From a virus: a stretch of 37,956 bases of DNA. The notes under the pieces were generated by a model, which worked only from the letters and a program-made list of their open reading frames with translations, was not told the DNA's origin and did not search any database. This document shows positions 183-37,159 of the stretch, in pieces. Made by a program: the position numbers and the translations under genes. The DNA is taken from UHGV virus genome UHGV-0192057. One strand, 5' to 3'. Numbering within the stretch: position 1 is the stretch's first letter; every line of letters starts with the position of its first letter.

Positions 183-199
183 CGCCACCCGAAGGTGGC
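183..199. repeat. attL core candidate (17-bp direct repeat, hairpin GCCACC-CGAA-GGTGGC)
   Basis: Exact copy of the 17-mer at 37143-37159; sits about 90 bp outside the int stop codon. Confidence 0.6.
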
Positions 200-289
200 A
201 TAAGGGGGTAGCATGTACCGCACCACCCCTTTATATATCAAATAGTTACAAGTTCAAAGTGGTTCGAAATCGTGCCATTTAGTCCCCGT

Positions 290-1321
290 TTATGGGCAAA
301 ATCTGGACAACTCCGCAACCGGATTGAACCTTACCGCGTCCTGGAGATAATCAGGTGCAAAGTGCGCATAGGTCATTGTTTGCTGAATTGTGCTGTGCCC
401 TAAAATACGCTGAAGGGTAATAATGTTCCCTCCATTTATCATGAAATGAGTTGCGAATGTGTGCCGTAAAACATGCACAGACTGACCGACTGGTAAATCA
501 GGCCGCACAGTCCTTATTGCACTTCTGACTATCGCATAACTGGGGTTCATTAATCTTCCCGTCGCTTTGACTTTAATCAGAGATTCAAGATCTTTAGCTA
601 TAGGAATAACCCGCCGCGATCCATTCTTTGTCTCCATGAAAATAACCTTCCCACCAATTATGTGTTCACCTTTAATATTGGCAACTTCACCCCAGCGCCC
701 GCCTGTAGCCAGGCTTAACAATACAGCCTTAAGATTATCGCCAGATAAAAGTGCGGTTAGTCTGGGAATATCATCATGTGCAAGATAAGCCATTTCCGGC
801 TGATTAATTGTTAGCTTGCGTATCTCGTGAAACGGGTTATCACCCACAAACTCTTCAACATCAATCAGCTTTTCAAAGAAACCGCTCATCATTGCACAAT
901 AACGATTTACCGTTGACTGCTTAATTCCGCGATTCATTAATTCAAGGCGATATCTGATAATATTTTTTCGGGTTAAGTGGTCACTTCTGTTAATACCAAG
1001 CTCTTGCATATCACGAAGAACCGCTTCAATTCTGACCCGATTCATCGCGCCATAACGATGATTCTTACCGTGGTACACCCACCACAGTTCCAGAAGATCG
1101 CTTAACGCTTTACGTTCAATAGGTTTTTCGACCCAGTCCTTATCGTGATAATGCGTCAGAACATGGCGTTCATACATCGCCGCTTCACCACGGGTAGGAA
1201 ATCGCCGCCGAAATCTTCTTCCTTCAGATCCAGCAGGCCGCACGTCCACACAGTATTTGCCATCAGCGAGCTTCTTAATCGACATAAGGAAGCCCCCCAA
1301 TGAAAACATCATCTTGATCAC
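290..1321 (-). CDS. int: Tyrosine integrase, P2 Int family
   Basis: 343-aa ORF; C-terminal region with HxxR...Y-type recombinase signature (VLRHTFATHF...TMTYAHF); sits next to the att repeat and upstream of the C repressor as in P2. Confidence 0.93.
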   Translation of the reverse strand: MIKMMFSLGGFLMSIKKLADGKYCVDVRPAGSEGRRFRRRFPTRGEAAMYERHVLTHYHDKDWVEKPIERKALSDLLELWWVYHGKNHRYGAMNRVRIEAVLRDMQELGINRSDHLTRKNIIRYRLELMNRGIKQSTVNRYCAMMSGFFEKLIDVEEFVGDNPFHEIRKLTINQPEMAYLAHDDIPRLTALLSGDNLKAVLLSLATGGRWGEVANIKGEHIIGGKVIFMETKNGSRRVIPIAKDLESLIKVKATGRLMNPSYAIVRSAIRTVRPDLPVGQSVHVLRHTFATHFMINGGNIITLQRILGHSTIQQTMTYAHFAPDYLQDAVRFNPVAELSRFCP

Positions 1322-1351
1322 AATTTTGAGAAATAAAGGCCAGATGGACCG

Positions 1352-1645
1352 TTAACCAGTCTTCTTGCCGGAGTGGGGTGATTCCGATTCGCTTCGCCCA
1401 ATGTGTGCGAGAGCCGGTACCACCTGCCCGACCTTTGGTTCGACCTCATCGAACAAAAACCAGTCGCGGTATTTAGAAAATCTCGGGTGCTTAAAAAGCT
1501 TGATAGTGATCTCAAGACCAGGAAGGTTACGACCATACTCATAACTGGTCAGAGCAGAGTAAGAAATTCCAATCATATCAGCGAACTCCCGTTGAGTGAG
1601 ATCTTCAGATTTACGCATGACGCGAATTTTTTGAGGAATGTCCAT
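1352..1645 (-). CDS. Immunity repressor, P2 C-like
   Basis: 97 aa from the internal ATG at 1645 (MDIPQKIRVMRKSEDLTQREFADMIGISY...SPHSGKKTG); HTH; resembles P2 C from memory; divergent from cox. Confidence 0.8.
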   Translation of the reverse strand: MDIPQKIRVMRKSEDLTQREFADMIGISYSALTSYEYGRNLPGLEITIKLFKHPRFSKYRDWFLFDEVEPKVGQVVPALAHIGRSESESPHSGKKTG

Positions 1646-1658
1646 TTGACAAACTCCT

Positions 1659-1688
1659 ACATATGTGAGATTAATACCACATATGAAC
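1659..1688. promoter_or_regulatory. Candidate C operator / early promoter region (direct repeats ACATATG x2)
   Basis: acatatgtga at 1659-1668 and acatatgaac at 1679-1688 flank an AT-rich TTAATA element between divergent C and cox; P2-type repressors bind direct repeats around the early promoter. Confidence 0.4.
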
Positions 1689-1759
1689 ATAAAAAGAAAT
1701 GTTCTAAGTGGTTCCAACTAGTGCCAGATAGAAATAGCACCAATAACGGAGGATACCAG

Positions 1760-2185
1760 ATGCAAGAAGTCACTCAAAACGCGCCTGAATCGCCTGCCGA
1801 AACACAGTGCGATCAGTTGACAGATGCGCCAGAAACCGCACACCAAAAGACCGGGCGCAAAGCCCCTGAACGCCAAGAAATCAGGCTTTCACAAAACCCT
1901 TCTCATCTCCTGTCAAAAGAAGGGTTTGCGATGTATATCGGCAAGACCGTTGACGCCATCGTGAGCATGGCAAAAGCAGGGAAATTACCCGCTGTGTACA
2001 TGGCGGACCCTCTCAAGCCTGGCGGAAACGCCGAACTTTACATCAACCGGAAAGCATGGGATGAAGCCTGCGATCGACTCACTGAAAACGCACCGCAAGA
2101 ATGGCACGAATGGGAAAACCGACTTTTTTTATTTAAGCCAGCAGCTGGTTCACGGAATAAACGTATCAGTAAAAAAGCAGCTTAA
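1760..2185 (+). CDS. cox: Cox-like excisionase/transcriptional regulator (C-terminally extended)
   Basis: ATG at 1760 preceded by GGAGGA; first gene of the early operon opposite C; HTH-like segment (MYIGKTVDAIVSMAKAGKLPAV). 141 aa versus about 91 for P2 Cox. Confidence 0.6.
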   Translation: MQEVTQNAPESPAETQCDQLTDAPETAHQKTGRKAPERQEIRLSQNPSHLLSKEGFAMYIGKTVDAIVSMAKAGKLPAVYMADPLKPGGNAELYINRKAWDEACDRLTENAPQEWHEWENRLFLFKPAAGSRNKRISKKAA

Positions 2186-2266
2186 TATCAAACACACAGC
2201 GAAATCCACAACAGGAGATTTCGCCGTAAATAATCTAATCGTTGGTGTTATGCGGGGGCGCAACAA

Positions 2267-2704
2267 TCAACCAAGAAGACTTTTGAAAGCAAAGGATAAC
2301 CCAGTAGTAAGAGCGGATGATGCGGTGCTTTTTATCGCGTCCATTGAGCCACTCTTGGCTGCATCAACAAGCTTGTCGCCAAATGATTGTTTAAGTGACT
2401 CTGGATCAAGCTTAAGTAATTCAAGACCTTTGGCCGTGAGAACCGCATCAGAAAAGTAATGCGGAGGAGAAGATTTAGCGGATACATAACCAGCATCAAC
2501 AAGCCATGCGATGGAGTCACGGCGAAGCTCAAGAGCTTCAACTAGTTGCCTCCTGGAGGATCGGTCTTCTTCAAAAGTCAGCTCTGAAACACCGGTTAAG
2601 GCACAAATATCAATAGTTACTTTGCGGGGAAAAGTTTCATAAAGAAACGCAAAAGTTTTACCAACTGTTTCATTAAAAACATCAAGATTTGAAGGTATTG
2701 ACAT
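2267..2704 (-). CDS. Hypothetical protein (antisense cargo gene in the early operon)
   Basis: 145-aa ORF from ATG at 2704 with GGAG 6 nt upstream; fills the gap between cox and the next plus-strand gene on the opposite strand. No recognisable motif. Confidence 0.55.
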   Translation of the reverse strand: MSIPSNLDVFNETVGKTFAFLYETFPRKVTIDICALTGVSELTFEEDRSSRRQLVEALELRRDSIAWLVDAGYVSAKSSPPHYFSDAVLTAKGLELLKLDPESLKQSFGDKLVDAAKSGSMDAIKSTASSALTTGLSFAFKSLLG

Positions 2705-2897
2705 GACTGACTCCACTCAAACAAAAGACTTATACAGCGATTTACGCTTCATCATCATACAACAGCAATCAGGCAGGATGGATCCAACACGTGCAAGCAA
2801 GGCCTGGAAAGAAGCCCTTACCGATCAGGGGATCGATGTAATTAGCGAAGTCATGGCTGAAGTGATTTTTAGGCTGACAAGAGACGAATCACTGTAA
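2703..2897 (+). CDS. Hypothetical small protein (64 aa)
   Basis: ORF with GAAGG upstream; its start codon overlaps head-to-head with the start of the minus-strand gene 2267-2704. Confidence 0.35.
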   Translation: MTDSTQTKDLYSDLRFIIIQQQSGRMDPTRASKAWKEALTDQGIDVISEVMAEVIFRLTRDESL

Positions 2898-2922
2898 TCA
2901 TCGCATAAGGACCGAGTGAAGA

Positions 2923-3261
2923 ATGAAGCAACAACGAAATGCACGCATCAATAACAACACCGAACGCCACGTTGCACGCCAGCACTTCCGTAAAAATAGT
3001 GCGACCGTAACCACTGAAATCCACGCAACACCAGACGGTCACCCGGTAAAACAAACCGGCAAACACACCTGGGCGATTGGCGACACTGCCATCGTTATTC
3101 ACAAAAGTTTTCGCAGTCCTGTTACTGGCAGATTTAATTTCACCCTGACTCGCGGGGATGATTACTTCGGACAGGATTTCACATTTTTTGAAGCCTTAAG
3201 AACGGCAGACAGATTAATCAACGGCCTGTGTTTTCAATATCCGGGAAGTAAGTACCGATAA
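2923..3261 (+). CDS. Hypothetical early-operon protein (112 aa)
   Basis: ORF in the co-directional early gene block; no motif recognised. Confidence 0.5.
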   Translation: MKQQRNARINNNTERHVARQHFRKNSATVTTEIHATPDGHPVKQTGKHTWAIGDTAIVIHKSFRSPVTGRFNFTLTRGDDYFGQDFTFFEALRTADRLINGLCFQYPGSKYR

Positions 3262-3276
3262 ATAAAGGATTCAGTC

Positions 3277-3519
3277 ATGATCGAAGCCTACAAAATACTT
3301 ATTAATAACGCGTTGCAGCGTTACCACTTTGAACTCGCAAACAGGGGCGTAACTAAGGATGAAAGCCTTCGTAACTCACTGCGCGGCGCAATTATGGGAC
3401 TGTATAACTGCGCGCTGGGCAGCGATGACCGTGAAGCGCTGGAAGAATTAAAGTCGATTATGACAGAACTGTTTGAAGGTGAAATTGTCGAGCCTTACTT
3501 CACAGGAGTGGCAGCATGA
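3277..3519 (+). CDS. Hypothetical early-operon protein (80 aa)
   Basis: ORF tightly packed with neighbours; stop overlaps the next start (ATGA). Confidence 0.5.
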   Translation: MIEAYKILINNALQRYHFELANRGVTKDESLRNSLRGAIMGLYNCALGSDDREALEELKSIMTELFEGEIVEPYFTGVAA

Positions 3520-3641
3520 GCATATTCCTTTCATGGGTAATTCTGATTATCTCCGTGCTTATGGCAATCGGCATTATGCGAATTATCCACACACTGAAGG
3601 ATATCGAATTATTCTTTACCGGCGATAAACGCCGTAAATAA
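3516..3641 (+). CDS. Small hydrophobic protein (41 aa)
   Basis: Hand-translated MSIFLSWVILIISVLMAIGIMRIIHTLKDIELFFTGDKRRK; AGGAG upstream; ATGA overlap with the preceding gene; below the ORF-track length cutoff. Confidence 0.4.
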   Translation: MSIFLSWVILIISVLMAIGIMRIIHTLKDIELFFTGDKRRK

Positions 3642-3855
3642 AGCGAAAACCTTATGAAGAATGTAAAAGCAATACACACCATCGCCACTGTATGGGTGAT
3701 ATTTCAGGTGAGTGCGCTTATCTGGTTAGCCCTGAAGATCTGGGAATAACCTGAAGCCGAAAGCAGGCGCGGAATAACACCAGAAAACACACGAGCAATT
3801 AATTAAGGCATTCATGCCTTCGGGTTCCCTTTGTCTTTTTTTCAGGAGTCAACAA

Positions 3856-4086
3856 ATGAGAACAGCCGAATCACCCGGCAGAGAAATAGCCGCCAGACCA
3901 GCTAACCATCATGCACATATCAGCATGGCCGCAAGAAAAGCCGAGCGTGCACATATCTGCGAATTACTGCGCGAGCTGACTGAGACAGCGAAAGAGACAC
4001 ACACCTGTCCACAGGAAACCTGCGCAGCCATTGAACGACTGATTGCAATACTCGCCAACCCAGACGAACTGAAGGGGTGCGCATAA
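3856..4086 (+). CDS. Hypothetical early-operon protein (76 aa)
   Basis: ATG at 3856 with AGGAG 8 nt upstream (the track ORF starts earlier, at 3814); Cys/His-containing. Confidence 0.5.
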   Translation: MRTAESPGREIAARPANHHAHISMAARKAERAHICELLRELTETAKETHTCPQETCAAIERLIAILANPDELKGCA

Positions 4087-4667
4087 TGAACCATCTCATG
4101 ATTGACACCGAAACACTGGGTAACGGACCGGACGCAGCCATATTCGCGATTGGGGCGGTGTTTTTCGACCCGTTCACCGGAAAGCTGGGCAAGCAGTTTG
4201 AGAAACTCATCGACCCGGTGGATTCAGAACGCAACGGCGGAACCGTCAATGCAGCCACCGCTGTATGGTGGGCCGGACAATCCGTGGAGGCCAGATCCTG
4301 CCTGCGCAACGCAGAGGGAACAGAGCTTGCGGCAGTAACCGAATTTCTGGCGTTCATTTCACGCAATATGCATGACGAAAGCACGGGCAATTCACTGACC
4401 ATATGGTGTAAGGGCGCATCCTTCGATTTCCCGATCCTGAAATCCGCCATAACACGCACAGCCGGAGAAAAAAGCATCCCCTGGCGCTACTGGAACGAGC
4501 GCTGTATGCGCCCGCTTATCGCCATGGCTGAATCAACTGGATGGAAAATGCCAGGCAGATCAGGAAAAGAGGCCATTGCTCACACCGCGCTGGGCGACGC
4601 CATTTACCAGGCAAAGGTCGTGTCAGAAATCTGGCAGCGCTTCACAACACCATTCCTGAACATATGA
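4086..4667 (+). CDS. DnaQ-like 3'-5' exonuclease (DEDD family)
   Basis: N-terminal Exo I-like motif MIDTETLG and later H...D (HTALGDAIYQ); 193 aa; start overlaps the previous stop. Confidence 0.7.
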   Translation: MNHLMIDTETLGNGPDAAIFAIGAVFFDPFTGKLGKQFEKLIDPVDSERNGGTVNAATAVWWAGQSVEARSCLRNAEGTELAAVTEFLAFISRNMHDESTGNSLTIWCKGASFDFPILKSAITRTAGEKSIPWRYWNERCMRPLIAMAESTGWKMPGRSGKEAIAHTALGDAIYQAKVVSEIWQRFTTPFLNI

Positions 4668-4900
4668 GGTGAAGCCATGGTCGCCATCCTGAATGTGTGT
4701 TGCTGCCCCCCCCTGAACGTGGAAAGAAAAGCCCGCGCATCGCTGCGTTTATTCCGCGACGGCGTGCGGAATTTTTCACGCATAAAACCCCACGACTACC
4801 TGGTAATAAGAATCGGTTTTCGCTGGCGATTGCTGAGCAAAAACAACGGGGCGTCATGGGATTTATTAACGCACGAAACCTATAACAAAGAGGCCGCGTT

Positions 4901-6721: not shown

Positions 6722-7149
6722 CGCAAATGCTCGCTGGCAGACAGACCAACAGATGCGCTCGCTTTGTTTTTTGCGGGCCTGACAAACGCCTTCATGGATG
6801 CGCTGTTCGTTTCTTCCAGATACAGAATGCGCTCAATCAGGCGTTCAGTGCTCATGAAATCCCTTTGCGTAATCAGACGAAGGTAGCTCTGTTTCTGCCA
6901 GCACGCCAGTTCGGCGACGAATTCACACTTGCTGCAAAACCAGGAAAAAACAAAAAACGCCAGCCCCCAAAGGCTCATCAGGACGGGAAAACCAACCAGA
7001 AGAAAGGACAATACCGCAGCAATCAGCGCCCCGGCGCGCAACATGGCAGCGGCTTTATTGCTGAGTATGAAAACCATCTCTTCCAGCCAATAGCTGTACC
7101 ACAGATGAAAAAAAATCTTCTTGTCTGCTTGCTCCATAGCAACAGGCAT
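6682..7149 (-). CDS. Hypothetical membrane protein (antisense cargo gene)
   Basis: 155 aa from ATG at 7149 with GGAGG 6 nt upstream; hydrophobic hairpin AGALIAAVLSFLLVGFPVLMSLWGLAFFVFSWF; its 3' end overlaps the end of the DUF4406 gene. Confidence 0.6.
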   Translation of the reverse strand: MPVAMEQADKKIFFHLWYSYWLEEMVFILSNKAAAMLRAGALIAAVLSFLLVGFPVLMSLWGLAFFVFSWFCSKCEFVAELACWQKQSYLRLITQRDFMSTERLIERILYLEETNSASMKAFVRPAKNKASASVGLSASEHLRYSERLICWLCGV

Positions 7150-7535
7150 AAACAACCTCCATTGTTAATAAACGCCGCTATCCCTCGGCGCATTCCATTT
7201 TTGCGCCGCGATTATACATACTTCAGCACGCAACACAAAAACCGCTTGCCAGCGCTCGTCGTGTCAGGTTACATTTCCGCTGCACCTCATAAAACGGGTG
7301 CCGGGTTTCGCAGCCTGCTGACAACCAAAGCGCACAACCGCGCCAGCGGTTTTTTTGTGCGTACTGTATTGCCACGTCTTTTTCGCGTCAGAATTATGGC
7401 GGGGCGTACGGGGCCGACTTCGGTCGGGCCGGGTTCTTTGGTTGCCGGTACTGCGAACCTCGTACACCTCGCCACCCACAGTTTCGCAGCTCTGGATGGT
7501 GAGTTTTCAAAACTTACAACCAAAGAGGCCACACC

Positions 7536-7757
7536 ATGGCAAACCGCAAGCAACAGCGCGCCCGCGCTGAGCGTCTTCACATCCGCAGCGAAATCAACCG
7601 CAGACTCCATCGGGCTGCATCTGTCGCCTTTATCATGCAGTCAAACGTATTACACCGACTTAACGACGGTATCGCTGCCGGGTATTACGCGGCAGTCTTC
7701 AGCTATCTCGCCGAAGATCTGGCAGAACTACAAAGCCTCATCAACCAGCACCGATAA
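7536..7757 (+). CDS. Hypothetical small basic protein (73 aa)
   Basis: ATG with AGAGG upstream; Arg-rich N-terminus; first plus-strand ORF after the structured gap. Confidence 0.4.
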   Translation: MANRKQQRARAERLHIRSEINRRLHRAASVAFIMQSNVLHRLNDGIAAGYYAAVFSYLAEDLAELQSLINQHR

Positions 7758-7825
7758 ACCACATCCTGAAGCCATCCCGCACCCGTGCGCGGGAGGCTTC
7801 CGCACGTCTGTTACCGGAGGTTCTC

Positions 7826-8242
7826 ATGAAGAGCGTTAAGGGACTTTCAGATATTCAGGACTTTTTTAACTGGATGTGGGCGGTGGATCCCCTGCTGGCT
7901 TCCCGCCTGAACAACTGGCACGACTACTACCGCCGCGCCTGTAAACAGGCCGCCCGCAGCATCACCACATACGGGGATTTCTCCTTCACCGTTGACGGTC
8001 GTTACCGCGTGGACGTGAAAGGTGACGGTGATGGCTTTGGTTTATTTCACATCAACGGCACCGACAGTACCGCCATCAGCTGGTCATCGTCAGAGATGGC
8101 ACTGGTTCTGGAAATGACAACCCACAGCGTGGCCGTGAAAGGCATATACACCGCAGAAGACTTTATCGGTGAATACCAGCGCCTTCTCGTGCTGTACCGC
8201 GCGGCGTTTCAGGAGGTCACTGGCGGGGAGTACGACGCATGA
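7826..8242 (+). CDS. Hypothetical protein upstream of A (138 aa)
   Basis: ORF whose stop overlaps the A start. Confidence 0.55.
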   Translation: MKSVKGLSDIQDFFNWMWAVDPLLASRLNNWHDYYRRACKQAARSITTYGDFSFTVDGRYRVDVKGDGDGFGLFHINGTDSTAISWSSSEMALVLEMTTHSVAVKGIYTAEDFIGEYQRLLVLYRAAFQEVTGGEYDA

Positions 8243-11739: not shown

Positions 11740-12057
11740 ATGCCAACACAGGTTGCAACAGAGGGACGACTGGCAGCAGACCCGAACACAAGGAGAACAA
11801 CCAAAGGAACCAACGTCACAACGGCACAACTGGCGGTATCACTACCCTGCCATGGCGCAGAACAGCCAACCACAATGTGGCTTTACCTTATTTCATTCGG
11901 GAAGCAGCACGAAGAACTGGCAAAACACAGAAAAGGCGATCTGATTCTGGTGCACGGAAACTTGCAGGTAAACAGGTATCAGGACAAGTACGGGCAACAG
12001 AAAGAGGGCTGGCAGCTGCTGATGCAAAGCATTATCAGCTCAAGAACCGGGCGATGA
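11740..12057 (+). CDS. SSB-like OB-fold protein, short (105 aa, no acidic C-terminal tail)
   Basis: N-terminus EGRLAADPNTRRTTKGTNVTTAQLAVS resembles the SSB beta1-beta2 region; lacks the C-terminal DDDIPF-type tail. Confidence 0.5.
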   Translation: MPTQVATEGRLAADPNTRRTTKGTNVTTAQLAVSLPCHGAEQPTTMWLYLISFGKQHEELAKHRKGDLILVHGNLQVNRYQDKYGQQKEGWQLLMQSIISSRTGR

Positions 12058-12067
12058 CTTCACGCAT

Positions 12068-12091
12068 GTTACCCTCAGCAGCGAGGGTAAC
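12068..12091. terminator. Hairpin between convergent SSB-like gene and hotspot membrane gene
   Basis: gttaccctc-agcagc-gagggtaac 9-bp stem, followed by a T-run on the plus strand. Confidence 0.45.
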
Positions 12092-12106
12092 ACAGGATTT
12101 CTTTTT

Positions 12107-12751
12107 TCAGTCAAACCGAAATCGGCCGCTTGTCGCGTATGCATAGGTGACCACCGCACCCAGCGCATTCACACGCTTCTTCACATAAATCACATTACCA
12201 TCCTGATAGTCACCGTATGGGTAGCAAATAAAGATTGTTTTTTGCAAATCAGGATCATCAACAAATGCCCCTGAACAACTTTTTGAGCTACCGCGACTGT
12301 ACTCATAGGGAGCGGAATAGAATGAATCTTCACCCGGAAGAAAATATATCAGCGTAACCAGGAGGGTAAACAGAATCATCCAGGTAAGAAGGCACATACC
12401 CGAAAAAAACTTAAGATACGATGTAACCCCGGTAAATTTAGACCGATCAACCAGGTTCTTTTTCAACAGGCACAGTGAGACAAAAACCGAAAGCACCACA
12501 GACACTGAAACAAGGCAGTTTGTCGTGAACGAATAAAGGTAGGTAATTCTGTAAACATCGTTTCGCCACCAAATAAAAAGAAAAATCCCCCCCAAAACAG
12601 AAAGCGTGACAAAAGTTAAATAAGGATATGAGTAATTTTTCACAGTTCTCACCCGGCAATACACCACTGATTCAGACAGATGATTATCATCACCACCCAC
12701 CCCCAAAAATCGCAAGATAAAAAATGCACAAAAGCGCACGAAATTGCACAA
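12107..12751 (-). CDS. Hypothetical 3-TM membrane protein in the AT-rich tin/old-equivalent hotspot (start uncertain)
   Basis: 214-codon open frame in conspicuously AT-rich DNA; three hydrophobic segments and a roughly 85-aa C-terminal soluble domain. The track start is TTG; in-frame ATGs occur only near codon 123. Confidence 0.5.
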   Translation of the reverse strand: MCNFVRFCAFFILRFLGVGGDDNHLSESVVYCRVRTVKNYSYPYLTFVTLSVLGGIFLFIWWRNDVYRITYLYSFTTNCLVSVSVVLSVFVSLCLLKKNLVDRSKFTGVTSYLKFFSGMCLLTWMILFTLLVTLIYFLPGEDSFYSAPYEYSRGSSKSCSGAFVDDPDLQKTIFICYPYGDYQDGNVIYVKKRVNALGAVVTYAYATSGRFRFD

Positions 12752-13197
12752 TTTTTCTTATGTGTTTCATCCCCATTCAGCCCAGTAACGGCGCTGGCTG
12801 AGGCCGGTTTGCACGGTGCACGAAAAACGAGGCAATTGCAGCGCGCAGGCGACGAGGGAAGGGCGCCCGAATTGAGGGGTGGAAGGCAGGTTGCTTTATT
12901 TGGGGTCGTATTGCGCGTGATACGCACGCAGTGAAGCCGGTTCTGAAAAAACCACACCGAAACAGAGTCAGAAAAACAGGCCGCCAGAATGCGTCTGGTT
13001 GAGTTTTACGGGGTCGGGATTAAATGCGGAAACATCACACCGCAGGCATGACGCGAAAAAGAGAAAAACCACAGCAAAACATAATGTTAAATGTTATTGA
13101 TGAGTTGAGAAGCGAAAGGTGTATTGCGTTGACAGAGCTGGAGAGTCGGGGCATAAATTTTTTATGCCCCGGCGAAGCAGCCGACAAGCGAAGCGCG

Positions 13198-21111: not shown

Positions 21112-23082
21112 ATGAGCAAAAAACACTTTGAACTGATTACTGCCACCAACCGCGCAGAATTCGCTGAAAAAGTTAACAAGCGGTTACAGGAAGGCTGGGA
21201 ACTTCTCGGTAATGCCGGTATTGCATCAGAGCCGGGAGTCCCCTGGTATCTCATGCAGGCTATGGTTTCAGGCAGTGATGACCAGGGAGGCACCATTATC
21301 ACCCCGACATCCGACAGCGAACCGGAGTGGTATTACGTTGTGGTGAGCGCTGGTCAGTCCAACTCTATGGCATACGGTGAGGGGTTACCTCTCCCGGACA
21401 GTTACGATAAACCCGATTCGCGCATTCGCCAGCTGGCACGCCGCAGCACCGTAACCCCGAGCGGAAAAGCCTGTGCCTATAACGACATCATTCTGGCGGA
21501 TCACTGCCTGCATGACGTGCAGGATATGAGCCAGTACAACCACCCGAAAGCCGACCTGAACAAAGGTCAGTATGGCTGTGTGAGTCAGGGATTGCACATT
21601 GCGAAGCGCCTGCTGCCATTTATCCCGGCAAATGCGGGGATCCTTCTGGTCCCATGCAGCCGTGGCGGTTCCGGCTTTACAACCGGTGATGCGGGGCAAT
21701 TCAGCGAGATCGGCGGCGCAACTGAAAAATCCTGCCGCTGGGGAACGAACACGCCGCTGTACAAGGATTTAATCAGCCGCACAAAAGCAGCGCTGGCGAA
21801 AAATCCGAAAAACGTCCTGCTGGCCGTCTGCTGGACACAGGGCGAGGCAGATCTTGAGAAAGAACAAAACGCCGCACAGCATAAAGATCTTTTCACAGCC
21901 ATGGTGAAGCAGTTCCGGGCTGACCTGGCCGATGTTGCGAAGCAGTGCAACCAGGGCAACCCTGAAAGCGTGCCGTGGATTTGTGGAGATACCACCTACC
22001 ACTGGAAAAAAACCTACGAAGCACAGTACGCAACCGTGTATGGCGGATACAAAAACAGCACTGAGAAGAATATTGTTTTTGTGCCTTTTGTTACGGATGA
22101 GTACGGGAAAAACACCCCAACAAACGAGCCGACAGAAGATCCGGATATTGCGGAAGCGGGTTATTACGGTGCCGCATCCCGCAGTAGCGGAAACTGGGTA
22201 AGCCATCTGCGTGGAACGCACTTCAGCTCATGGGCCCGCCGGGGCATTATTGCCGATCGCATGGCGTCAGCAATCCTGCTTAACGTCGGCCGCACGCTGC
22301 CATTTATTGCGGGTACAGAGCCGGAACGCGTGGCAAAACCATCACAGGATGCACCGGGCGGCATCAGTAAGCCATCTTCACCGGAAACAGAACAACCGGC
22401 AGTCAGACCGGGGCCGGTCACGCTCATGAGTCTGCTGGCATCATCTCCTGAACTGGAAAGCCAGGGCTGGACGCTGAGCGAAGGCAAAAACGGGGCCAAC
22501 ACACCAAAACAACTGAAAGACATGCTGATCGGTGATGAGGAAGCAACAGGGAAAAAAGCCCTGAAACTGACCAAACAGGAAGGCAATACCTGGTATCTGG
22601 ATCATAAGGCCGGTAATGGTGCTGACCTTCTGAAAAATGGCGGGACTGTAAGTTGCCGATTCAAAATCGAGGGTGAGCTGAAAAAAGACCAGTACGCAAT
22701 GGCGATGTACTGGAAAACATCAGCATTACCGCAGGATGTGAAATTACTGGGGGCAGATCCAAATAATTTATTGCTCTCATTCTTTCTTCAGACAGACAGC
22801 GCAAACCTGAATCTGATGTATCACAAAACGCCAAACGAACAACTGGGAACCTTTGGTCAGTTCAATAACAACTGGCACACCATAGCGTTTCGTTTTGCGG
22901 GAAACAACAGCACCCAGGTAACACCGGTTCTGGATGGCGTGGACGGAAAACCGTTCATGCTTTCCACATCAAAAGCCGATGTTACCAACGACACGTTACG
23001 CGTGACCGATATCACGTATCGGCCGACCTATACCGTACTGATTGACAGCCTGAGCGTTGTCGTAAATCAGCCACCGGCATAA
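21112..23082 (+). CDS. NanS-p-like sialate O-acetylesterase (DUF1737-like N-terminus + SASA/SGNH esterase core + C-terminal domain)
   Basis: 656 aa; motifs VVVSAGQSNSMAYGEG (GQSN catalytic-Ser block), PCSRGGSGF, WTQGEADL; N-terminus MSKKHFELITATNRAEFAEKVNKRLQEGWELLG resembles the DUF1737 domain of prophage NanS-p esterases. Family assignment is from memory. Confidence 0.6.
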   Translation: MSKKHFELITATNRAEFAEKVNKRLQEGWELLGNAGIASEPGVPWYLMQAMVSGSDDQGGTIITPTSDSEPEWYYVVVSAGQSNSMAYGEGLPLPDSYDKPDSRIRQLARRSTVTPSGKACAYNDIILADHCLHDVQDMSQYNHPKADLNKGQYGCVSQGLHIAKRLLPFIPANAGILLVPCSRGGSGFTTGDAGQFSEIGGATEKSCRWGTNTPLYKDLISRTKAALAKNPKNVLLAVCWTQGEADLEKEQNAAQHKDLFTAMVKQFRADLADVAKQCNQGNPESVPWICGDTTYHWKKTYEAQYATVYGGYKNSTEKNIVFVPFVTDEYGKNTPTNEPTEDPDIAEAGYYGAASRSSGNWVSHLRGTHFSSWARRGIIADRMASAILLNVGRTLPFIAGTEPERVAKPSQDAPGGISKPSSPETEQPAVRPGPVTLMSLLASSPELESQGWTLSEGKNGANTPKQLKDMLIGDEEATGKKALKLTKQEGNTWYLDHKAGNGADLLKNGGTVSCRFKIEGELKKDQYAMAMYWKTSALPQDVKLLGADPNNLLLSFFLQTDSANLNLMYHKTPNEQLGTFGQFNNNWHTIAFRFAGNNSTQVTPVLDGVDGKPFMLSTSKADVTNDTLRVTDITYRPTYTVLIDSLSVVVNQPPA

Positions 23083-29858: not shown

Positions 29859-32744
29859 CTAATCACGATCGCGGAAACTGTTCATACCGCCGGATTGTCT
29901 GCGAATTTCTTCCCGTACCGCCTCCCCCACCATTCTGGCAAGGTCGCGAGGGTTCTGCGTAACCACGTTGTGAAGGTGAACATGAATATCACCACCGTAC
30001 ACAGACGGCGGTTCAGGAGAGCGCGAAGGCCCCCGGGGTGTCGGGGACACCGGATCCCACCGCTTAACCTCCACAGGACGGGAAGAATCCGGGGAAACCG
30101 CCGGAGACACAGGCGAAAACGCTGGCATAAGCGGAAGCCCGGGTGCAACAGTCGGTTCATTCCACTGCCCGCGAACAGCCAGCGCACGGGGGAGATTTTT
30201 AAACACGATATCGCCAGGACCGATACGCTTGCGGGCTTCCTGAAGCATACCCGACGTATTACCCTCGATACCTTTGAGCCTGCGAAGAACGCCACTGGTG
30301 CCGTCGTTTATGACAGAAGGCTTGCCACCATTATTACCTTTATCATTGCCATCAACTGGCTTAGCGGGCGAGATAATGGCATTAACATCCCCCTGAAGCA
30401 GGGAGAGCTTGCCCTGAAGAAGCGAAGCCCGCTGTGCATCCTCCAGTTTCCGGCGCGCCCTTTCAGCTTCATCAGGCAGCACGCCAAGCTTTTCCAGTAC
30501 CCAGGCAAGTCCATCCATCAGCGCCTTCAGCGGCGTAAGCGCAAGCGATATCGCCCCACTAAGTACACGACCGAAGCTTTCTCCCGCAGACGTACACCGT
30601 TCAAGAGATTCGTTGCTGGCCTGAACAGGCGTGAGTAACCGGGTAAACCAGTCAAACACCGTGGACACCGCACCCGACACCAGATCAAACAACGGCGCAA
30701 ACTGAGCAATACTTTCACGAACAGGCGCAAGGCCAGCCCACAGCGACCGGAATGTGCCGAGCATGAACGCCTTAACCTGTTCCCAGTGACGCCATATGAG
30801 CAGCGCCCCACCGGCAAGAGCAGCAATCACGAGACCAACAGGACTGAGAAGACCGGAAAGCACCCCGCCCAGCACAGAAACCGCACCGGAGACCATCCCC
30901 CACAGTGCCGGAAGGCCGGACAGGCGAAGAGCAAGACCACCAACACCGTTTGTAAGCGAGGACAGCCCGCCACCAAGAAGCGCAGAGCCAAGCTGAAGTT
31001 TTGCAAAAATCCCCGTCAGTAACCCACCTCCGACAGACAACGCACCAATGGCCGTTGTGGCCGCAAGCACGCCACCCACGGTAAGGGTCAGCGTGCGTAC
31101 AAGCTGCGGGTTTTCCTGAACCCACGACCTGAAGCGTTCACCCACAGAAGCAACAGCCTGTACAAGCTCGCGGATATCATCAGTAACCAGCGACACAACA
31201 TCACTGCGAATACCGGAGAAAATGCCGGACAGACGATCGGTGTCGCCGCCGAGGTTGTCACGCAGAACATCCCCCATTCGCCGGGCGGTTCCCTGAACCA
31301 GCCCCATACGGTCAGATACCGTTGCAAGCGACCGGAGAAAATCCGGGATCTGGTCAACAGCCAGATCTTCAATGGGTGTGCCGAACAGCGCTATCGCCGC
31401 ATTGGCCCGTTCTGCAGGATCCTGAATCTGTAACAGACCTGACGCGGTGCGACGCATCGCTTCACGCGCGGCCGCGCCGCCACTGGCGATCGCTGACGAC
31501 ATTCTTTCAGCGTTAAGGCCAATCAGCTCATAGGCTTCAACGCTGGATTTGGACATATCCGAGCCGCGAATACTGAATTCTTTGACAGCATCGCCGGTTT
31601 TATCCAGGGCGAATTTCCCCTGCTGCGCCATGCTGACAAGCAGCGTCATGGTTTCAGAGCCGGATAGCCCCATATTGCGGAAATGCGTGGAATACTCATG
31701 CAGAATTTCAGGAAGTTCGCCGCGCATTTCGGCAGACATTTTCTGCATCCCTGCCGCCATCAGGTCGACGGCCTCACCTGCATTTGCGGCAAGCCCGTTT
31801 TTCAGCATAATGCCAGCAGCCTGAACCTGTTCAGCCACATTACCGCCGGTGACCTGAGCAAGATCGATTGCCTGCCGTGTCACCCTTTCCAGTTCTTCAG
31901 TCCCTACGGTACCCAGTGCGCCAAGCGTGCTTTGCGCCGCAGCTGCTGCTTCCGAAATCATCGCGATATCCGTGGCCGCACCTGACGCACGGATGCTCTG
32001 AATCATACGGCTGTAGCGCTGGCCGTCTTCTGCGCTGCCGCCACTCTGTGCCGCAATGAGCGCACCCTGCCGTTGCTCTTCAACAACAGGTGCAACCGCG
32101 CGACCGGCAGCATACAGACCGGCACTGCCAGCCGCCATGGCAACAGCACCGCGCTGACTGAGCTTACCGGCAATATCCTGAACACGGTCATAGCGTTGCT
32201 GCGCCTGCGTGACGCGTGCAAGCTGGCCCCGCTGGCGTTCGAGCTGATCGTTGTATTCCTGCGTCCGCCTGATTGCCCTCTCGACCGCACGGTTACTTCC
32301 GTCCGCCCGTATACCGTGAGATTCCAGTTCGCGACTGGCTTCGCTAAGTCGGGATTTGTGGAGGGAATAAACCGTATTAAGGCGATCAATCTTCACAGTC
32401 ATCGAGCGGATAGCTTCCTGCTGTTTTTCCGTTAGTGTTGTGCCTGTACGCTGGGCCTCCTGGAGGCGCTGAAGTCGCGCACGCGCCTCGTTCAGACTGT
32501 TTTCAGTCGAGGTCACCTGCTGGCGGGCACGGGAAAACGCATCACTGCTTCGCTGGAGTGACTTAAGAGCGTTCTGCGTGGAGGAAAGAGATTCGGAAAG
32601 CGCGCCGGTCATTTCCCGGGCGCGCCTGACGGGTTGAGTGAGACGGTCGACCGCAGTAAGGGCTACACGTATCTGGAGATTATTACTCATCGTTATGATT
32701 CCCGGTTCTGACGGCCGCCCGTTCTCGCCAGGCAACCAGTTCAC
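29859..32744 (-). CDS. T: Tail tape measure protein (gpT)
   Basis: 961 aa, alpha-helical N-terminus, Gly/Ala-rich hydrophobic central region; GTG start at 32744 overlaps the E' stop (GTGA); an internal ATG near 32690 is an alternative start. Confidence 0.88.
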   Translation of the reverse strand: MNWLPGENGRPSEPGIITMSNNLQIRVALTAVDRLTQPVRRAREMTGALSESLSSTQNALKSLQRSSDAFSRARQQVTSTENSLNEARARLQRLQEAQRTGTTLTEKQQEAIRSMTVKIDRLNTVYSLHKSRLSEASRELESHGIRADGSNRAVERAIRRTQEYNDQLERQRGQLARVTQAQQRYDRVQDIAGKLSQRGAVAMAAGSAGLYAAGRAVAPVVEEQRQGALIAAQSGGSAEDGQRYSRMIQSIRASGAATDIAMISEAAAAAQSTLGALGTVGTEELERVTRQAIDLAQVTGGNVAEQVQAAGIMLKNGLAANAGEAVDLMAAGMQKMSAEMRGELPEILHEYSTHFRNMGLSGSETMTLLVSMAQQGKFALDKTGDAVKEFSIRGSDMSKSSVEAYELIGLNAERMSSAIASGGAAAREAMRRTASGLLQIQDPAERANAAIALFGTPIEDLAVDQIPDFLRSLATVSDRMGLVQGTARRMGDVLRDNLGGDTDRLSGIFSGIRSDVVSLVTDDIRELVQAVASVGERFRSWVQENPQLVRTLTLTVGGVLAATTAIGALSVGGGLLTGIFAKLQLGSALLGGGLSSLTNGVGGLALRLSGLPALWGMVSGAVSVLGGVLSGLLSPVGLVIAALAGGALLIWRHWEQVKAFMLGTFRSLWAGLAPVRESIAQFAPLFDLVSGAVSTVFDWFTRLLTPVQASNESLERCTSAGESFGRVLSGAISLALTPLKALMDGLAWVLEKLGVLPDEAERARRKLEDAQRASLLQGKLSLLQGDVNAIISPAKPVDGNDKGNNGGKPSVINDGTSGVLRRLKGIEGNTSGMLQEARKRIGPGDIVFKNLPRALAVRGQWNEPTVAPGLPLMPAFSPVSPAVSPDSSRPVEVKRWDPVSPTPRGPSRSPEPPSVYGGDIHVHLHNVVTQNPRDLARMVGEAVREEIRRQSGGMNSFRDRD

Positions 32745-32837
32745 CGGGAGTCATCACAAAGATTTCAGAGGGCGACCAGTGAAATACAACGGCTATATCA
32801 GCGACAATATCTTCAACGTAATCAAAAGCAAGAAGCG

Positions 32838-33218
32838 TTACGCGCCGCCCGCCTCCTGCGCCTTCTTCGCTGACGAGGGAAGCAAAAAACCGACTGCCAC
32901 CTCGTACAGTTTAAAGAAGTCTTCCGGGCACATTGACATAAGTGCCGCGCGGCTGAGGTGAGGTTCAGTTACGCGTTCCAGAAAAATGGCGGCAGCATCA
33001 ACATCGGTGTTGAACAGGTCCGTCATGCGGATCCCTCGAAGCGAGCCCACCTGACGCGCAAGCGCCCCAATCTTCACGCTGGAAACCGTCTTATTACCGC
33101 AGACAACAGGAACCCTGAGATTAACCGTGTCATTTGCGATCGCCTCTGCGTTTTCCGTGTCGCCATTCGTCACAGCATCTGTGTCATTCGTCACGATATT
33201 TTCTTCAGTCTGATCCAT
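32838..33218 (-). CDS. E: Tail assembly chaperone E (gpE); E+E' frameshift product would extend to about 32740
   Basis: 126 aa upstream of T. Slippery TTTTTTG near the 3' end (minus strand, plus coordinates 32883-32889); the -1 frame stays open for about 50 codons and ends at TGA overlapping the T start. Confidence 0.75.
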   Translation of the reverse strand: MDQTEENIVTNDTDAVTNGDTENAEAIANDTVNLRVPVVCGNKTVSSVKIGALARQVGSLRGIRMTDLFNTDVDAAAIFLERVTEPHLSRAALMSMCPEDFFKLYEVAVGFLLPSSAKKAQEAGGA

Positions 33219-33269
33219 TATTTTTCTCCCGGGGCAACAGGACGCCGCCCCTGTTATCAGATTTAACTA

Positions 33270-33782
33270 TCAGCCAAGCCCCAGCATGGAGCGGGTGCGG
33301 TCAGGAAGAACATCATTACCATCAATGCGCCAGATGAAGTTCAGCACGTCGATTTCAATAACATCGCTGTTATCAACGCTGAGCTTGTACCAGGTGCATT
33401 TCATCGCATAGGTATGTTCGGTATCTTCACCCTGTTTGGCCTCGCCCTTGTCGATTTCGACAATGCGACCACGGGCTTCAATATCGACGTACTCAATCCC
33501 TTCTTCGGAATAGTATTCACCCGAGAAGCGAACACGCACGGCATCAATACCGGCGGCGTATTTAGCAAAGATGTGACGATCGACGCCACCAACCGCAAAG
33601 GAGAGATCCAGTGCACCATCATCAAGACCGAGATCCACCGACGCAGAGCCAGGCATACCCGCCCCGCGATACGACTCTGTTTTGCGGGTCAGTTTTGGCG
33701 GGGTAAAAGACGTCACCTTGCCCAGCTTGTTGTCACCGTCCACAAAGACGGTAAACACACGAAGTTTTTTTGGTACGGCCAT
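33270..33782 (-). CDS. FII: Tail tube protein (gpFII)
   Basis: 170 aa; P2 FII-like (MAVPKKLRVFTVFVDGDNKLGKVTSFTPP...). Confidence 0.9.
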   Translation of the reverse strand: MAVPKKLRVFTVFVDGDNKLGKVTSFTPPKLTRKTESYRGAGMPGSASVDLGLDDGALDLSFAVGGVDRHIFAKYAAGIDAVRVRFSGEYYSEEGIEYVDIEARGRIVEIDKGEAKQGEDTEHTYAMKCTWYKLSVDNSDVIEIDVLNFIWRIDGNDVLPDRTRSMLGLG

Positions 33783-34987
33783 TAGCTACCTCCAAGAGAT
33801 GCAAAAGCAGAGCCAAAGAACTCGTCGGTAAACGTCTGATAGAGTTCCATACATTCCATCGGTGGTACGGGCGTGTATTTGTAGCGAATACGCACAATGC
33901 CCTGACGAAGACTGGTTGTATTGTTGTCGACAATATCGAACCAGCATTCCGCCCCAATGAGTTTTCCGGCTGTCACCAGTGCATCCAGCTTTGCCTTGAT
34001 AGCGCTCACGGCATCCTTAGCATTGGCAGGCGTAAGCGGTGAATCCACTATCTGAAGTTGCGCCTCCGCAATGGTGTCAGCCAGTTGCTGCGCCGTACGT
34101 GTGTACACCTCAAAGATGTACTCCGCAGTTTCCGGCGTACGGTTACCCCAGAAACGGAAGGAGCCGTCGCCCTGGTGAATAAGAGTGGTCACCTCGCTGT
34201 TGTTCAGCGTGTTGGCATCGCTGTTTTCATCCTGAAGTGACCAGGAAACAGACGCTGACACCCCAAGAACATTTTTCACAGGCATGTTAGAAAGGGAGCG
34301 ATGCCAGCCCTGTTCATGGTCGAGTCGGGCACGAAGACCGCACGCATACGCCGCAGCCGGGAAGGTTTCGTTTTTACCGGACACCGGGTTGAACGCAATG
34401 AAATCAGGCCACAGAAGCATGATTTCGCGACCGGAAATCTTTTTACGGAACGCAATAGCATCGGACGGTTTTGTGCAGCCAGGGCAGCCGGAATACGCAA
34501 ATGCGCGCATTTTTCCGGCAACAGTCACCAGTGCAGCCGTGACAGCATCCGATTCAAGGCCCGGAGCGGCAAGAATGCGGGGTCGGCAACCAATACCTTC
34601 CATCTGTTCGGCAACCAGAAGCGCCTGCATACCGCTGTAGCTTCCGTCTTCTTCCGTGGTACCAATGACCAGTTGATCCTGTGTTTTATTCTCAGCCCCC
34701 TCTTTTGCCGCCTCCACGCGAACGACAATCACCCGTGTACTGACCTGGTCAGATATCGCTTTAAGGGCCTTATAAAGCGTGCCCGCTTTCCCGGCCTTCC
34801 CCAGAACAGAAGATACACGGGTAATCAGCACTGGCTTGTTAAGGGGGAACTGCCCGGTATCCGCATCATCTGCAACGGCAACAATACCAATGACGCTGGA
34901 ATCAACGTCATTAATGGCCGTCACAAGGTCGGTATTCTCCGTGACGCGCACACCGTGAAATCGTTTTTCAGCCATACGATTCACCAT
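33782..34987 (-). CDS. FI: Contractile tail sheath protein (gpFI)
   Basis: 401 aa; P2 FI-like. Confidence 0.93.
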   Translation of the reverse strand: MVNRMAEKRFHGVRVTENTDLVTAINDVDSSVIGIVAVADDADTGQFPLNKPVLITRVSSVLGKAGKAGTLYKALKAISDQVSTRVIVVRVEAAKEGAENKTQDQLVIGTTEEDGSYSGMQALLVAEQMEGIGCRPRILAAPGLESDAVTAALVTVAGKMRAFAYSGCPGCTKPSDAIAFRKKISGREIMLLWPDFIAFNPVSGKNETFPAAAYACGLRARLDHEQGWHRSLSNMPVKNVLGVSASVSWSLQDENSDANTLNNSEVTTLIHQGDGSFRFWGNRTPETAEYIFEVYTRTAQQLADTIAEAQLQIVDSPLTPANAKDAVSAIKAKLDALVTAGKLIGAECWFDIVDNNTTSLRQGIVRIRYKYTPVPPMECMELYQTFTDEFFGSAFASLGGS

Positions 34988-35050
34988 CAGTTGTGTTTAT
35001 GCTCGCCTGAATAATCCACCATTGGCGCACAGCCATCACCTGATGCGGGC

Positions 35051-35068
35051 TGTGGGGATTTTTTTACA
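35051..35068. promoter_or_regulatory. Ogr-type activator box (TGT-N12-ACA) in the divergent FI/D intergenic region
   Basis: tgt-ggggattttttt-aca; about 55 bp from plausible transcription starts for both FI (minus) and D (plus). Confidence 0.5.
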
Positions 35069-35128
35069 ACAGAGCCAGACAGAAACGACAAGGTACGCGT
35101 GGGATGATACGCACACGGGAGGGATATC

Positions 35129-36274
35129 ATGAGCATCACTGAATCAGTAACACATCACATCAACAGCGCACTGGATGCAGCGGAAGATACCGTTAGGGTG
35201 CCAGACTTCACTATCACACTGGAAGGGAAAGATGCCAGCCTGAAGAACATCACGCAGCGCATCATGAGCCTGACCATGACAGACAACAGGGGTTTTGAGG
35301 CTGACAGGGTGACACTGGAAATCGACGACGCCGACGGCGGGGTGGTACTTCCGGAACGCGGAACACGATTATCGCTGGCGATGGGGTGGAAAGGTGAAAG
35401 CCTCACTCGCAAGGGGACGTTTGTGGTGGACGAAGTGAGCCACGAAGGTCCGCCGGATAAGCTGACCATATCCGCGAACAGTGCGGATTTTCGCGAAGAG
35501 TTTAACGTGAAACGCGAAGTCTCCTGGCATGACGTGACCGTTGAGCGTGTGGTATCTGCCATCGCGCACCGTTACGGACTGAAAGCACAAATCAGCGAAA
35601 TGCTGATGAATATCGAAATCGACCATGCAGACCAGACAGAGGAAAGCGACATCTCGTTCCTCACGCGTATGGCTGACATGCTGGGTGCAATAACCACCGT
35701 AAAAAACGGGAGCCTGCTGTTCATTCTGCCGGGTGGCGGTGTGACAGCCAGCGGGCGCGCCCTCCCCTCATTCGCCCTGACCCGCTCGGATGGCGACAGT
35801 CATCGCTTTCGCATTGCTGACAGAAAAGCCTATACCGGAGTGAAAGCTTACTGGCTGGATTTAAAGTTCGGCCAGAAGAAGGCCGTGAACGTGAAAAAGC
35901 GAAACGCGAAAACCACACAGAAGCCGGAGAAAAGCAGTTCACGGGAGGGTGGATACATGGAAGGCGCAGAAGGCAATGTATATGTGCTGAGAAAAACCTA
36001 CCCGAACGAAGAAGCCGCGCGTCGCGCAGCTGCCGCACGCTGGCAGCAACTTCAGCGGGGTGCAGCAGAATTCAGCATCACGCTGGCGCGCGGACGCGCC
36101 GACCTGTATCCGGAGATGCACGGCACGGTATCCGGGTTCAAGAGCGATATTGACAATCAGGACTGGGTTATTTCGCGCATTGAGCACGTCATCGACGACA
36201 GCGGCTTCACCACCAGACTGGAGCTGGAAGCAAAAATCGCAGACTGGATAGCAGAGCGCGCCACAACTGGCTAG
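35129..36274 (+). CDS. D: Late control / tail protein D (gpD)
   Basis: 381 aa with GGGAGGG upstream; P2 gpD-like; followed by ogr. Confidence 0.9.
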   Translation: MSITESVTHHINSALDAAEDTVRVPDFTITLEGKDASLKNITQRIMSLTMTDNRGFEADRVTLEIDDADGGVVLPERGTRLSLAMGWKGESLTRKGTFVVDEVSHEGPPDKLTISANSADFREEFNVKREVSWHDVTVERVVSAIAHRYGLKAQISEMLMNIEIDHADQTEESDISFLTRMADMLGAITTVKNGSLLFILPGGGVTASGRALPSFALTRSDGDSHRFRIADRKAYTGVKAYWLDLKFGQKKAVNVKKRNAKTTQKPEKSSSREGGYMEGAEGNVYVLRKTYPNEEAARRAAAARWQQLQRGAAEFSITLARGRADLYPEMHGTVSGFKSDIDNQDWVISRIEHVIDDSGFTTRLELEAKIADWIAERATTG

Positions 36275-36315
36275 AATGAGCGCGAGCCCACCCCGTTTCA
36301 GCCTGGGGGACCATC

Positions 36316-36618
36316 ATGCATCCTTGCCCATACTGCGGAGCAAGTACCCGCACCAGAACAAGCCGCGACGCCAACGATACAGGAACAATCAGGGAGAAAT
36401 ATTACCAGTGCAACAACATTGAATGCAGCGCCACCTTTGTGACGCACGAGTTTGTCGTGAGAACCGTATGCCGTCCGCAACCCACCGAAGAACGGGGAGT
36501 CGTCCCCGCAGACGCTTTCAAATCATGCCACCGGGGAAGGGATCAACTCAGCCTCCCCCTGGGCGATTGCGCCTCCCAGTCAAAAACTGTACATTACGCG
36601 CGGGTGCCTTTCGGCTGA
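36316..36618 (+). CDS. ogr: Ogr/Delta-family zinc-finger late transcription activator (3' end uncertain)
   Basis: N-terminus MHPCPYCGASTRTRTSRDANDTGTIREKYYQCNNIECSATFVTHE carries the C-x2-C...C-x4-C Ogr zinc finger. The open frame runs to 100 aa versus about 72 in P2. Confidence 0.8.
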   Translation: MHPCPYCGASTRTRTSRDANDTGTIREKYYQCNNIECSATFVTHEFVVRTVCRPQPTEERGVVPADAFKSCHRGRDQLSLPLGDCASQSKTVHYARVPFG

Positions 36619-36749
36619 CGGCTGGAAGGATTACCTGAAGGCCGGATGTGGAAAGGCCCCGAGTCAAACATATTGTTTAACCCGAGGCCCTGACCATCTA
36701 ACCGTGACAAGTGGAAGGTTAGCGCCTCTTTGAAAAAGGAGCAAGCGCT

Positions 36750-36890
36750 ATGCCGCAAAAAACGATCATCGTGAGCATTTTATGCTTAACCATGTTGTTG
36801 ACCGTCTGGATGATACACCGTTCACCGTGTGAGTTCAGACTTAACATCATGTGGTCAGAATTTGCGGCGTTCTTGCAGTGTAAACAGTAA
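36750..36890 (+). CDS. Hok/Gef-family type I toxin (HokA-like, 46 aa)
   Basis: Hand-translated MPQKTIIVSILCLTMLLTVWMIHRSPCEFRLNIMWSEFAAFLQCKQ; AGGAG 9 nt upstream; resembles E. coli HokA from memory (MPQK..., TWMIRDSLCE..., AAFLACK); single TM then conserved Cys. Confidence 0.6.
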   Translation: MPQKTIIVSILCLTMLLTVWMIHRSPCEFRLNIMWSEFAAFLQCKQ

Positions 36891-36983
36891 GAAACCGCAG
36901 CGGGGGTGAAAGCCCCCGCTATCCGGTTGCCGAAGGTTCGGTCGAAAGTCGCACCATCACACGCAAGTCACAAAGAAAAACAA

Positions 36984-37015
36984 AGCCCGCAGCGTAAAAA
37001 CTGTGGGCTTTTTTT
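36984..37015 (+). terminator. Rho-independent terminator downstream of the hok-like gene
   Basis: agcccgcag-cgtaaaaa-ctgtgggct stem-loop followed by TTTTTT. Confidence 0.6.
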
Positions 37016-37142
37016 GTTTAACAACCTGGCGGTGAAAACAACAAGCAGAGATAGTCTCACCAAAAAAATTTAGAACGCCATGGCAATATGTGGACAACTC
37101 GAAAAATAATCCTTTATTTTTCATTGCATTACATCAGTTTTC

Positions 37143-37159
37143 GCGCCACCCGAAGGTGG
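37143..37159. repeat. attR core candidate (17-bp direct repeat / terminator hairpin)
   Basis: Identical to 183-199; followed by gtgcttttattatt, so the right copy retains a U-tract. Confidence 0.6.

Follow-up and report, generated by a model that had tools for sequence, protein, structure and literature searches.

Phage P88 (Xuanwuvirus P88, KP063541), which was recovered as a plaque-forming phage after mitomycin C treatment, carries a phage attachment site (attP) that was "determined as a 14-bp fragment", GCCACCCGAAGGTG, in a paper that contains neither "terminator" nor any word beginning "ytf" (PMC5285337). The attachment sites of P2, W-phi, phi-D145, and 186 lie at other positions of the MG1655 chromosome (PMC3448106). 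Insertion into an RNA 3′ stem-loop has been described for the pneumococcal prophage phi-OXC141, which lies in ccnC (csRNA3) and produces hybrid attL and attR junctions with an altered 3′ structure (PMC9764711). Here we describe a prophage that fills most of UHGV virus genome UHGV-0192057, a stretch of 37,956 nt (the window, below), and is flanked by the Escherichia coli genes chpS and ytfP. We put at roughly 85% the probability that this element, which looks complete, is a temperate P2-type phage of the P88 lineage (Peduoviridae), inserted via its tyrosine integrase at a terminator hairpin. The attachment site is already published, for P88, and the feature is ordinary and largely known, being a phage of the P88/P2 integrase family at a published site. 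Added here are the identification of the bacterial site (attB) as the mapped terminator hairpin of ytfP, a corrected strand logic for the effect on termination, and a core of 14 or 17 nt depending on phage lineage. A literature search on ytfP or chpS together with prophages found nothing on this attachment site.

The prophage ends are marked by the 17-mer CGCCACCCGAAGGTGGC, which occurs exactly twice in the window, both times on the + strand, with no third copy even at two or fewer mismatches. The chance expectation for this word is 0.01 matches, and two copies arose in 0 of 100 shuffles. It is also the longest exact word common to positions 1–600 and 36701–37956; the runner-up, the 10-mer TGGACAACTC, is an integrase arm-type site, and a repeat search of the whole window returned short chance families only, with no competing boundary repeat. 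The two copies are as follows.

183–199, + strand: left 17-bp copy of the att core, at the int-proximal junction (B-O-P′)
37144–37160, + strand: right 17-bp copy of the att core, at the ogr/hok-proximal junction (P-O-B′); on the minus strand a hairpin without a U-tract

Together with one core copy the prophage measures 36,961 bp. An earlier note on this DNA had already taken the 17-bp repeat for the prophage ends, and it was right apart from placing the right end at 37159, one base short of the end of that copy. It had also described a GCCACC-CGAA-GGTGGC hairpin and what follows each copy on the + strand, and these details hold as well: 6 bp of stem lie inside the repeat, GTGCTTTTATTATT comes directly after the right copy, whereas the left copy runs into phage sequence (ATAAGGGGG). 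At the uninterrupted site the stem has 8 bp (ACGCCACC CGAA GGTGGCGT).

For the empty-site comparison, window positions 1–199 were joined to 37161 onward and searched in 5,426 complete E. coli genomes. The joined flanks are contiguous in 5198 of these, and NZ_CM128590.1 has an empty site that is 100% identical over all 405 nt; the proposal that attB could be rebuilt from the flanks in prophage-free E. coli is thus confirmed. Boundaries at other positions were considered and rejected, as the empty-site alignment runs ungapped through the junction and a hok cassette like that near the right end is also present in P88, which identifies it as phage cargo. Related int genes (80–99.5% identity) occupy the identical left junction in 35 genomes, and the right junction of the other lysogens shows the same conserved phage arm; about 0.65% of the 5,426 genomes are lysogenic at the ytfP site. 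Subtracting these 35 lysogens, along with 191 genomes that lack the chpS-side flank, from the 228 genomes with non-contiguous flanks leaves about two exceptions. One of the 191, strain H22 (NZ_CP120563.1), was examined and has esiB in place of chpSB, with divergence beginning ~9 nt left of the hairpin; the ytfP terminator forms the border of a host segment that is variable. One of the exceptions, E. coli N32 (NZ_CM165895.1), carries IS4 inside the same terminator hairpin (locus ~1588–3000) with a 12-bp target duplication, CACCCGAAGGTG, and at least two kinds of mobile element therefore hit that hairpin. Across species, the occurrence of the 17-mer is uninformative on host range: in a search of one genome per species, at least 120 unrelated genomes contain this generic GC-rich hairpin.

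The host sequences on either side, together with the transcription signals that they contribute, are listed below; all four flanking host genes (chpB, chpS, ytfP, and tamB) are encoded on the minus strand of the window.

1–182, minus strand: host chpS-ytfP intergenic DNA, chpS promoter side, with the chpS start codon immediately left of position 1
158–175, minus strand: second host hairpin, ATGCGAGACGACTCGCAT, then TCTGTTTTGT, a tandem terminator-like element downstream of the core hairpin
173–181, minus strand: host U-tract TGTTTTATG of the ytfP terminator, downstream of phage int in the lysogen
37161–37174, + strand: host T-tract GTGCTTTTATTATT, polymorphic in E. coli
37173–37514, minus strand: ytfP (gamma-glutamylcyclotransferase family)
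37517–37956, minus strand: 3′ end of tamB, cut by the window edge

Read on the minus strand, the uninterrupted site is ACGCCACC-UUCG-GGUGGCGU followed by UGUUUUAUG, in which the loop forms a C(UUCG)G tetraloop; the folding energy of the 7-bp CGCCACC/GGUGGCG core is about −13 kcal/mol. Term-seq in K-12 places a 3′ end at MG1655 4448270(+) and ranks it as the primary ytfP end; its intrinsic-terminator score, 14.2, exceeds the threshold of 3.0 (PMC7815308). This end lies 177 nt upstream of the chpS start, equivalent to window position ~177, which is five bases past the stem and within the U-tract. The identification of the site as an intrinsic terminator downstream of ytfP, which the earlier note had made from the letters, is therefore supported by experimental data from K-12. 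The ytfP-sense U-tract is present in every aligned site and lysogen. In the strain background of the window the uninterrupted site is terminator-like on the + strand too, where the hairpin is followed by GCTTTTATTA, and this second tract varies: it is exact in 3,206 of 5,422 genomes (~59%), while ~2,170 genomes (~40%), K-12 included, have GTATGCATATGG instead.

In order to define the limits of the core, both junctions of six lysogens were aligned with P88 and with four sites that were empty or variant. At the host site the sequence is AAC-GCCACCCGAAGGTG-GCGTGC. P88-type phages read CGT-GCCACCCGAAGGTG-ACATGA and have 14 bases in common with it, whereas the phage of the window and the O22:H8 prophage read CGC-GCCACCCGAAGGTG-GCATAA and have 17. 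In P88-type lysogens GGTG is followed by the phage A at the left junction and by the host G at the right. Because these relatives share only the inner 14 bp, strand exchange must lie inside GCCACCCGAAGGTG. The core sites of tyrosine recombinases are inverted repeats, and the loop together with the inner stem is the probable place of exchange, the two arms of the stem acting as inverted core-type integrase sites; the predicted overlap region is 6–8 bp, centred on CGAA. The predicted attP junction is TTTTCG-CGCCACCCGAAGGTGGC-ATAAGG, and the predicted restored attB is AAAACAA-CGCCACCCGAAGGTGGC-GTGCTTTT. In the cq9 lysogen the right-junction hairpin is GCCCCCCGAAGGTGGC, with an A to C change in the left stem arm (GCCCCC), and the left junction is wild type; this single case is either a phage attP variant or a later mutation, and if phage-derived it would place the exchange to the right of the variant.

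Both phage arms carry the elements expected of a P2-type attP, arranged as follows.

200–236, + strand: P′ arm hairpin beside the core, then TTTATATAT; the stem sequence varies by lineage and the pairing is kept
292–313, + strand: P′ arm-type integrase site ATGGGCAAAATCTGGACAACTC, overlapping the end of int and conserved in seven phages
36982–37011: P-arm phage terminator, predicted in both directions; on the minus strand AAAGCCCACAG...CUGCGGGCUUU, then GUUUUUCUU (dG −15.2)
37080–37100, + strand: P arm-type integrase site ATGGCAATATGTGGACAACTC, conserved in seven aligned phages
37101–37126, + strand: A/T-rich block GAAAAATAATCCTTTATTTTTCATTG between arm site and core, conserved in seven of seven aligned phages

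The arm-type sites of both arms match the P2-type arm consensus, tgTGGaCa (PMC3448106), and the A/T-rich block is a putative site for a bending protein similar to integration host factor. P88 is alike in its host site, in a 14-bp attP contained within the 17-mer, in the layout of its P and P′ arms with their arm-type repeats and A/T block, and in a hok-family gene at the right end; it differs in matching attB over 14 nt as opposed to 17 nt here (CGT...GAC versus CGC...GGC) and in its right-end cargo. Its record is circular and linearised exactly at gccacccgaaggtg. When the reconstructed attP was searched against a phage collection, P88 alone carried the att site, split where its record is linearised, and the remaining matches covered only the int 3′ end and the arm region. 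P2 itself shares a tyrosine integrase of equal length, the int-C-cox order, and direct arm-type repeats in both arms, and its record shows the same order of ogr terminator, arm sites, A/T block, and core, although its core sequence and host site differ and the core here is short (14–17 nt).

The gene content agrees with this assignment, and the int-C-cox switch region, recognised by a helix-turn-helix repressor and a Phage_Cox protein beside int, adjoins the att site.

290–1285, minus strand: tyrosine integrase, 331 aa (Pfam Int_N, 1e-19; Phage_integrase, 3e-15)
1352–1651, minus strand: C-type immunity repressor with a helix-turn-helix (Pfam and annotation of a near-identical prophage)
1760–2185, + strand: Cox, excision and switch protein (Pfam Phage_Cox, E = 4e-27)
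2186–36315: prophage body (from the annotation of the near-identical prophage in strain DETEC-S792 and the open reading frame map)
36316–36618, + strand: Ogr/Delta late-gene activator (Pfam Ogr_Delta)
36750–36890, + strand: Hok/Gef toxin gene of a hok/sok-like cassette, prophage cargo (Pfam HOK_GEF)

The integrase shares 80% identity with that of P88 and, along all 331 aa, 58% with a P2 integrase. Of the phage records, P88 alone resembles the int region in its DNA (~76%), and little else matches at the megablast level. The body encodes replication gene A, portal, terminase, scaffold, capsid, lysis, baseplate, tail fibre, sheath, tube, and tape measure functions as well as gene D.

Because the crossover falls within the hairpin, a hairpin remains at each junction and only the sequence after it is exchanged. 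The left junction is terminator-like on the minus strand only (hairpin plus host TGTTTTATG, downstream of int), and the right junction on the + strand only (hairpin plus host CTTTTATTAT, downstream of the ogr/hok end). Since host tails are retained at both junctions, phage transcription directed outward still runs into a terminator on either side. Of host transcripts, tamB-ytfP alone is documented to reach the hairpin; it enters from the right on the minus strand, and on that strand the hairpin of the right copy is followed by CGAAAACTGATG, with loss of the U-tract. In the ytfP sense the right junction continues after the hairpin with CGAAAACUGAUG; the first 12 nt after the stem contain 2 U, and a terminator scan did not call this hairpin in any of the six lysogens. 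The earlier note had assigned the loss of the U-tract to the left copy, and a possible consequence to a host transcript arriving from the left. Both assignments have to be reversed: on the ytfP-sense strand the left copy keeps TGTTTTATG, and with tamB-ytfP entering from the right it is the right copy that is affected. In general, a crossover within a terminator hairpin swaps U-tracts, and it depends on the direction of each flanking transcript which of them loses termination.

The note's assignment could still apply to the + strand, if a host transcript from the left were no longer terminated at the left copy after replacement of its U-tract by phage DNA. We consider this highly improbable. 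It is true that the left copy is followed on that strand by phage sequence with no T's, that the uninterrupted site of this strain background reads as a + strand terminator, and that an unsupported open reading frame of older K-12 annotation, yzfA, runs antisense to ytfP and crosses the hairpin on the + strand. However, yzfA, the sole candidate for such a transcript, is doubtful and is un-annotated by RefSeq in the K-12 record examined, and a literature search on it found no relevant work among the papers listed. Of the annotated host genes, none is directed rightward into the site (chpS and chpB, on the minus strand, face away from it), positions 1–182 yielded no + strand promoter-like site, and Term-seq shows a 3′ end at the site in the ytfP sense only. 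The + strand T-tract is, moreover, the one missing from ~40% of E. coli including K-12, and the phage supplies a hairpin of its own, followed by TTTATATAT, just inside the left junction.

Under the preferred reading, in which the right copy loses its ytfP-sense U-tract, ytfP transcripts would read ~150 nt into the P arm and stop at the phage terminator (37011–36982). A minus-strand phage terminator is found 86–147 nt inside the core in five of the six lysogens and in P88. The effect on the host is likely to be small, a slightly longer 3′ untranslated region of ytfP. In the circular phage, C-int and ogr/hok transcription across attP would stop at the P-arm terminator and the P′ hairpin.

Several points weigh against this account. 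That the right junction no longer terminates ytfP transcripts, and that the P-arm terminator stops them, are both predictions from sequence. The Term-seq entry for 4448270(+) is also flagged as a Rho-dependent region, with a Rho score of 2.36 (PMC7815308), and the intrinsic terminator is therefore not the sole determinant of the ytfP end; Rho might compensate. In the O22:H8 lysogen, ~270 nt of phage DNA were examined and contained no P-arm terminator on the minus strand. Finally, there is no independently sequenced circular attP for this exact phage: a scan of IMG/VR for a contiguous attP, using the pattern TTTTCGYGCCACCCGAAGGTGRCATRA, gave 0 matches, a result that is uninformative rather than negative.

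The Rho flag in K-12 also favors an alternative in which integration is transcriptionally neutral, the hairpin having been chosen for its dyad symmetry and ytfP termination resting on the hairpin alone, on Rho, or on RNA processing. That the 17-mer is a generic hairpin found in so many unrelated genomes, and that tyrosine recombinases use inverted repeats as core sites, fit such a choice. An intrinsic terminator needs a U-tract as well as a hairpin, however, and the right junction has only 2 U in the first 12 nt after the stem; conserved phage terminators just inside both junctions also suggest that read-through matters to the phage. We regard neutrality as unlikely, although it is the alternative to which we give the most weight.

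The missing attP, sought in both IMG/VR and the phage collection, also bears on whether the element is a decayed, immobile remnant whose repeat is a relic of an old insertion. A related lysogen, ETEC1732, indeed has an int gene reduced to a truncated pseudogene. In the window, by contrast, full-length Int, C, and cox are present along with every P2 structural module, both cores are exact, the arm sites are conserved, and the relative P88 forms plaques after mitomycin C (PMC5285337). Decay to a remnant is therefore improbable.

Other elements are known for which the sequence at an insertion point matters in similar ways. Tn7 inserts at attTn7 in the terminator region of glmS, directed by TnsD; as here, the site is conserved, lies at the 3′ end of a host gene, and leaves the coding sequence intact, but the transposase/TnsD mechanism differs from that of a tyrosine integrase and there is no shared core. 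The ccnC target of phi-OXC141 is a regulatory small RNA with demonstrated competence inhibition, as opposed to the mRNA terminator used here. In the sib retroregulation of phage lambda, recombination at att changes what lies 3′ of int. At this locus, likewise, int runs into the host terminator when integrated, whereas in the circle the P arm and its terminator lie beyond it. The parallel is conceptual only.

Together these features raise the idea that insertion within the hairpin is a designed arrangement, in which the two host U-tracts are reused outward to shield chpSB and ytfP from phage transcription, the terminators of both attP arms shield the prophage from host read-through, and int, whose message would end differently in the integrated and circular forms, is placed under state-dependent control resembling lambda sib. 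We hold this to be doubtful. If it were true of P2-type integrases generally, terminator hairpins would be a preferred class of attB, with their dyad symmetry supplying the inverted core sites. The wider significance of the locus is modest, and no long-standing question depends on the result; its practical value is that exact boundaries fix the annotation and provide a clean set of attB, attP, attL, and attR for curing or inducing the phage.

Several observations concern the cargo of the prophage. Close to the right end, the hok/sok-like type I toxin region (36580–36960) shares ~85% identity with a region of Stx2-converting phages named "MokW-like host killing", and P88 has a hok/gef gene at the equivalent right-end place. 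The gene nearest the right junction varies among lysogens: O22:H8 has one for a BRCT-domain protein, whereas BEC1 and cq9 have genes for small hypothetical proteins, and in all three it lies on the ytfP-sense strand. Rfam matches above the gathering score were obtained on the + strand for isrK (7282–7356, 65.9 bits) and C4 antisense RNA (7392–7479, 80.8 bits), inside or beside an open reading frame (6727–7839) with a weak Ash-family match; this region is an antisense immunity module of the P1/P7 type, carried here by a P2-like prophage.

In P2 relatives, variable cargo such as old/tin occupies the position between the SSB-like and portal genes. The corresponding segment here is a low-GC stretch of ~1.1 kb (12040–13181) in which no gene is annotated in the DETEC-S792 prophage; it contains a 214-aa membrane-like open reading frame on the minus strand (12107–12751) that has no Pfam or PADLOC match, and PADLOC found no defence-system match in any of four cargo open reading frames searched. 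Between the lysis and tail genes, a 656-aa open reading frame (21112–23082, + strand) contains DUF1737, SASA (sialate O-acetylesterase), and DUF6645 domains; it is an esterase of the NanS-p type, which is usual in Stx phages.

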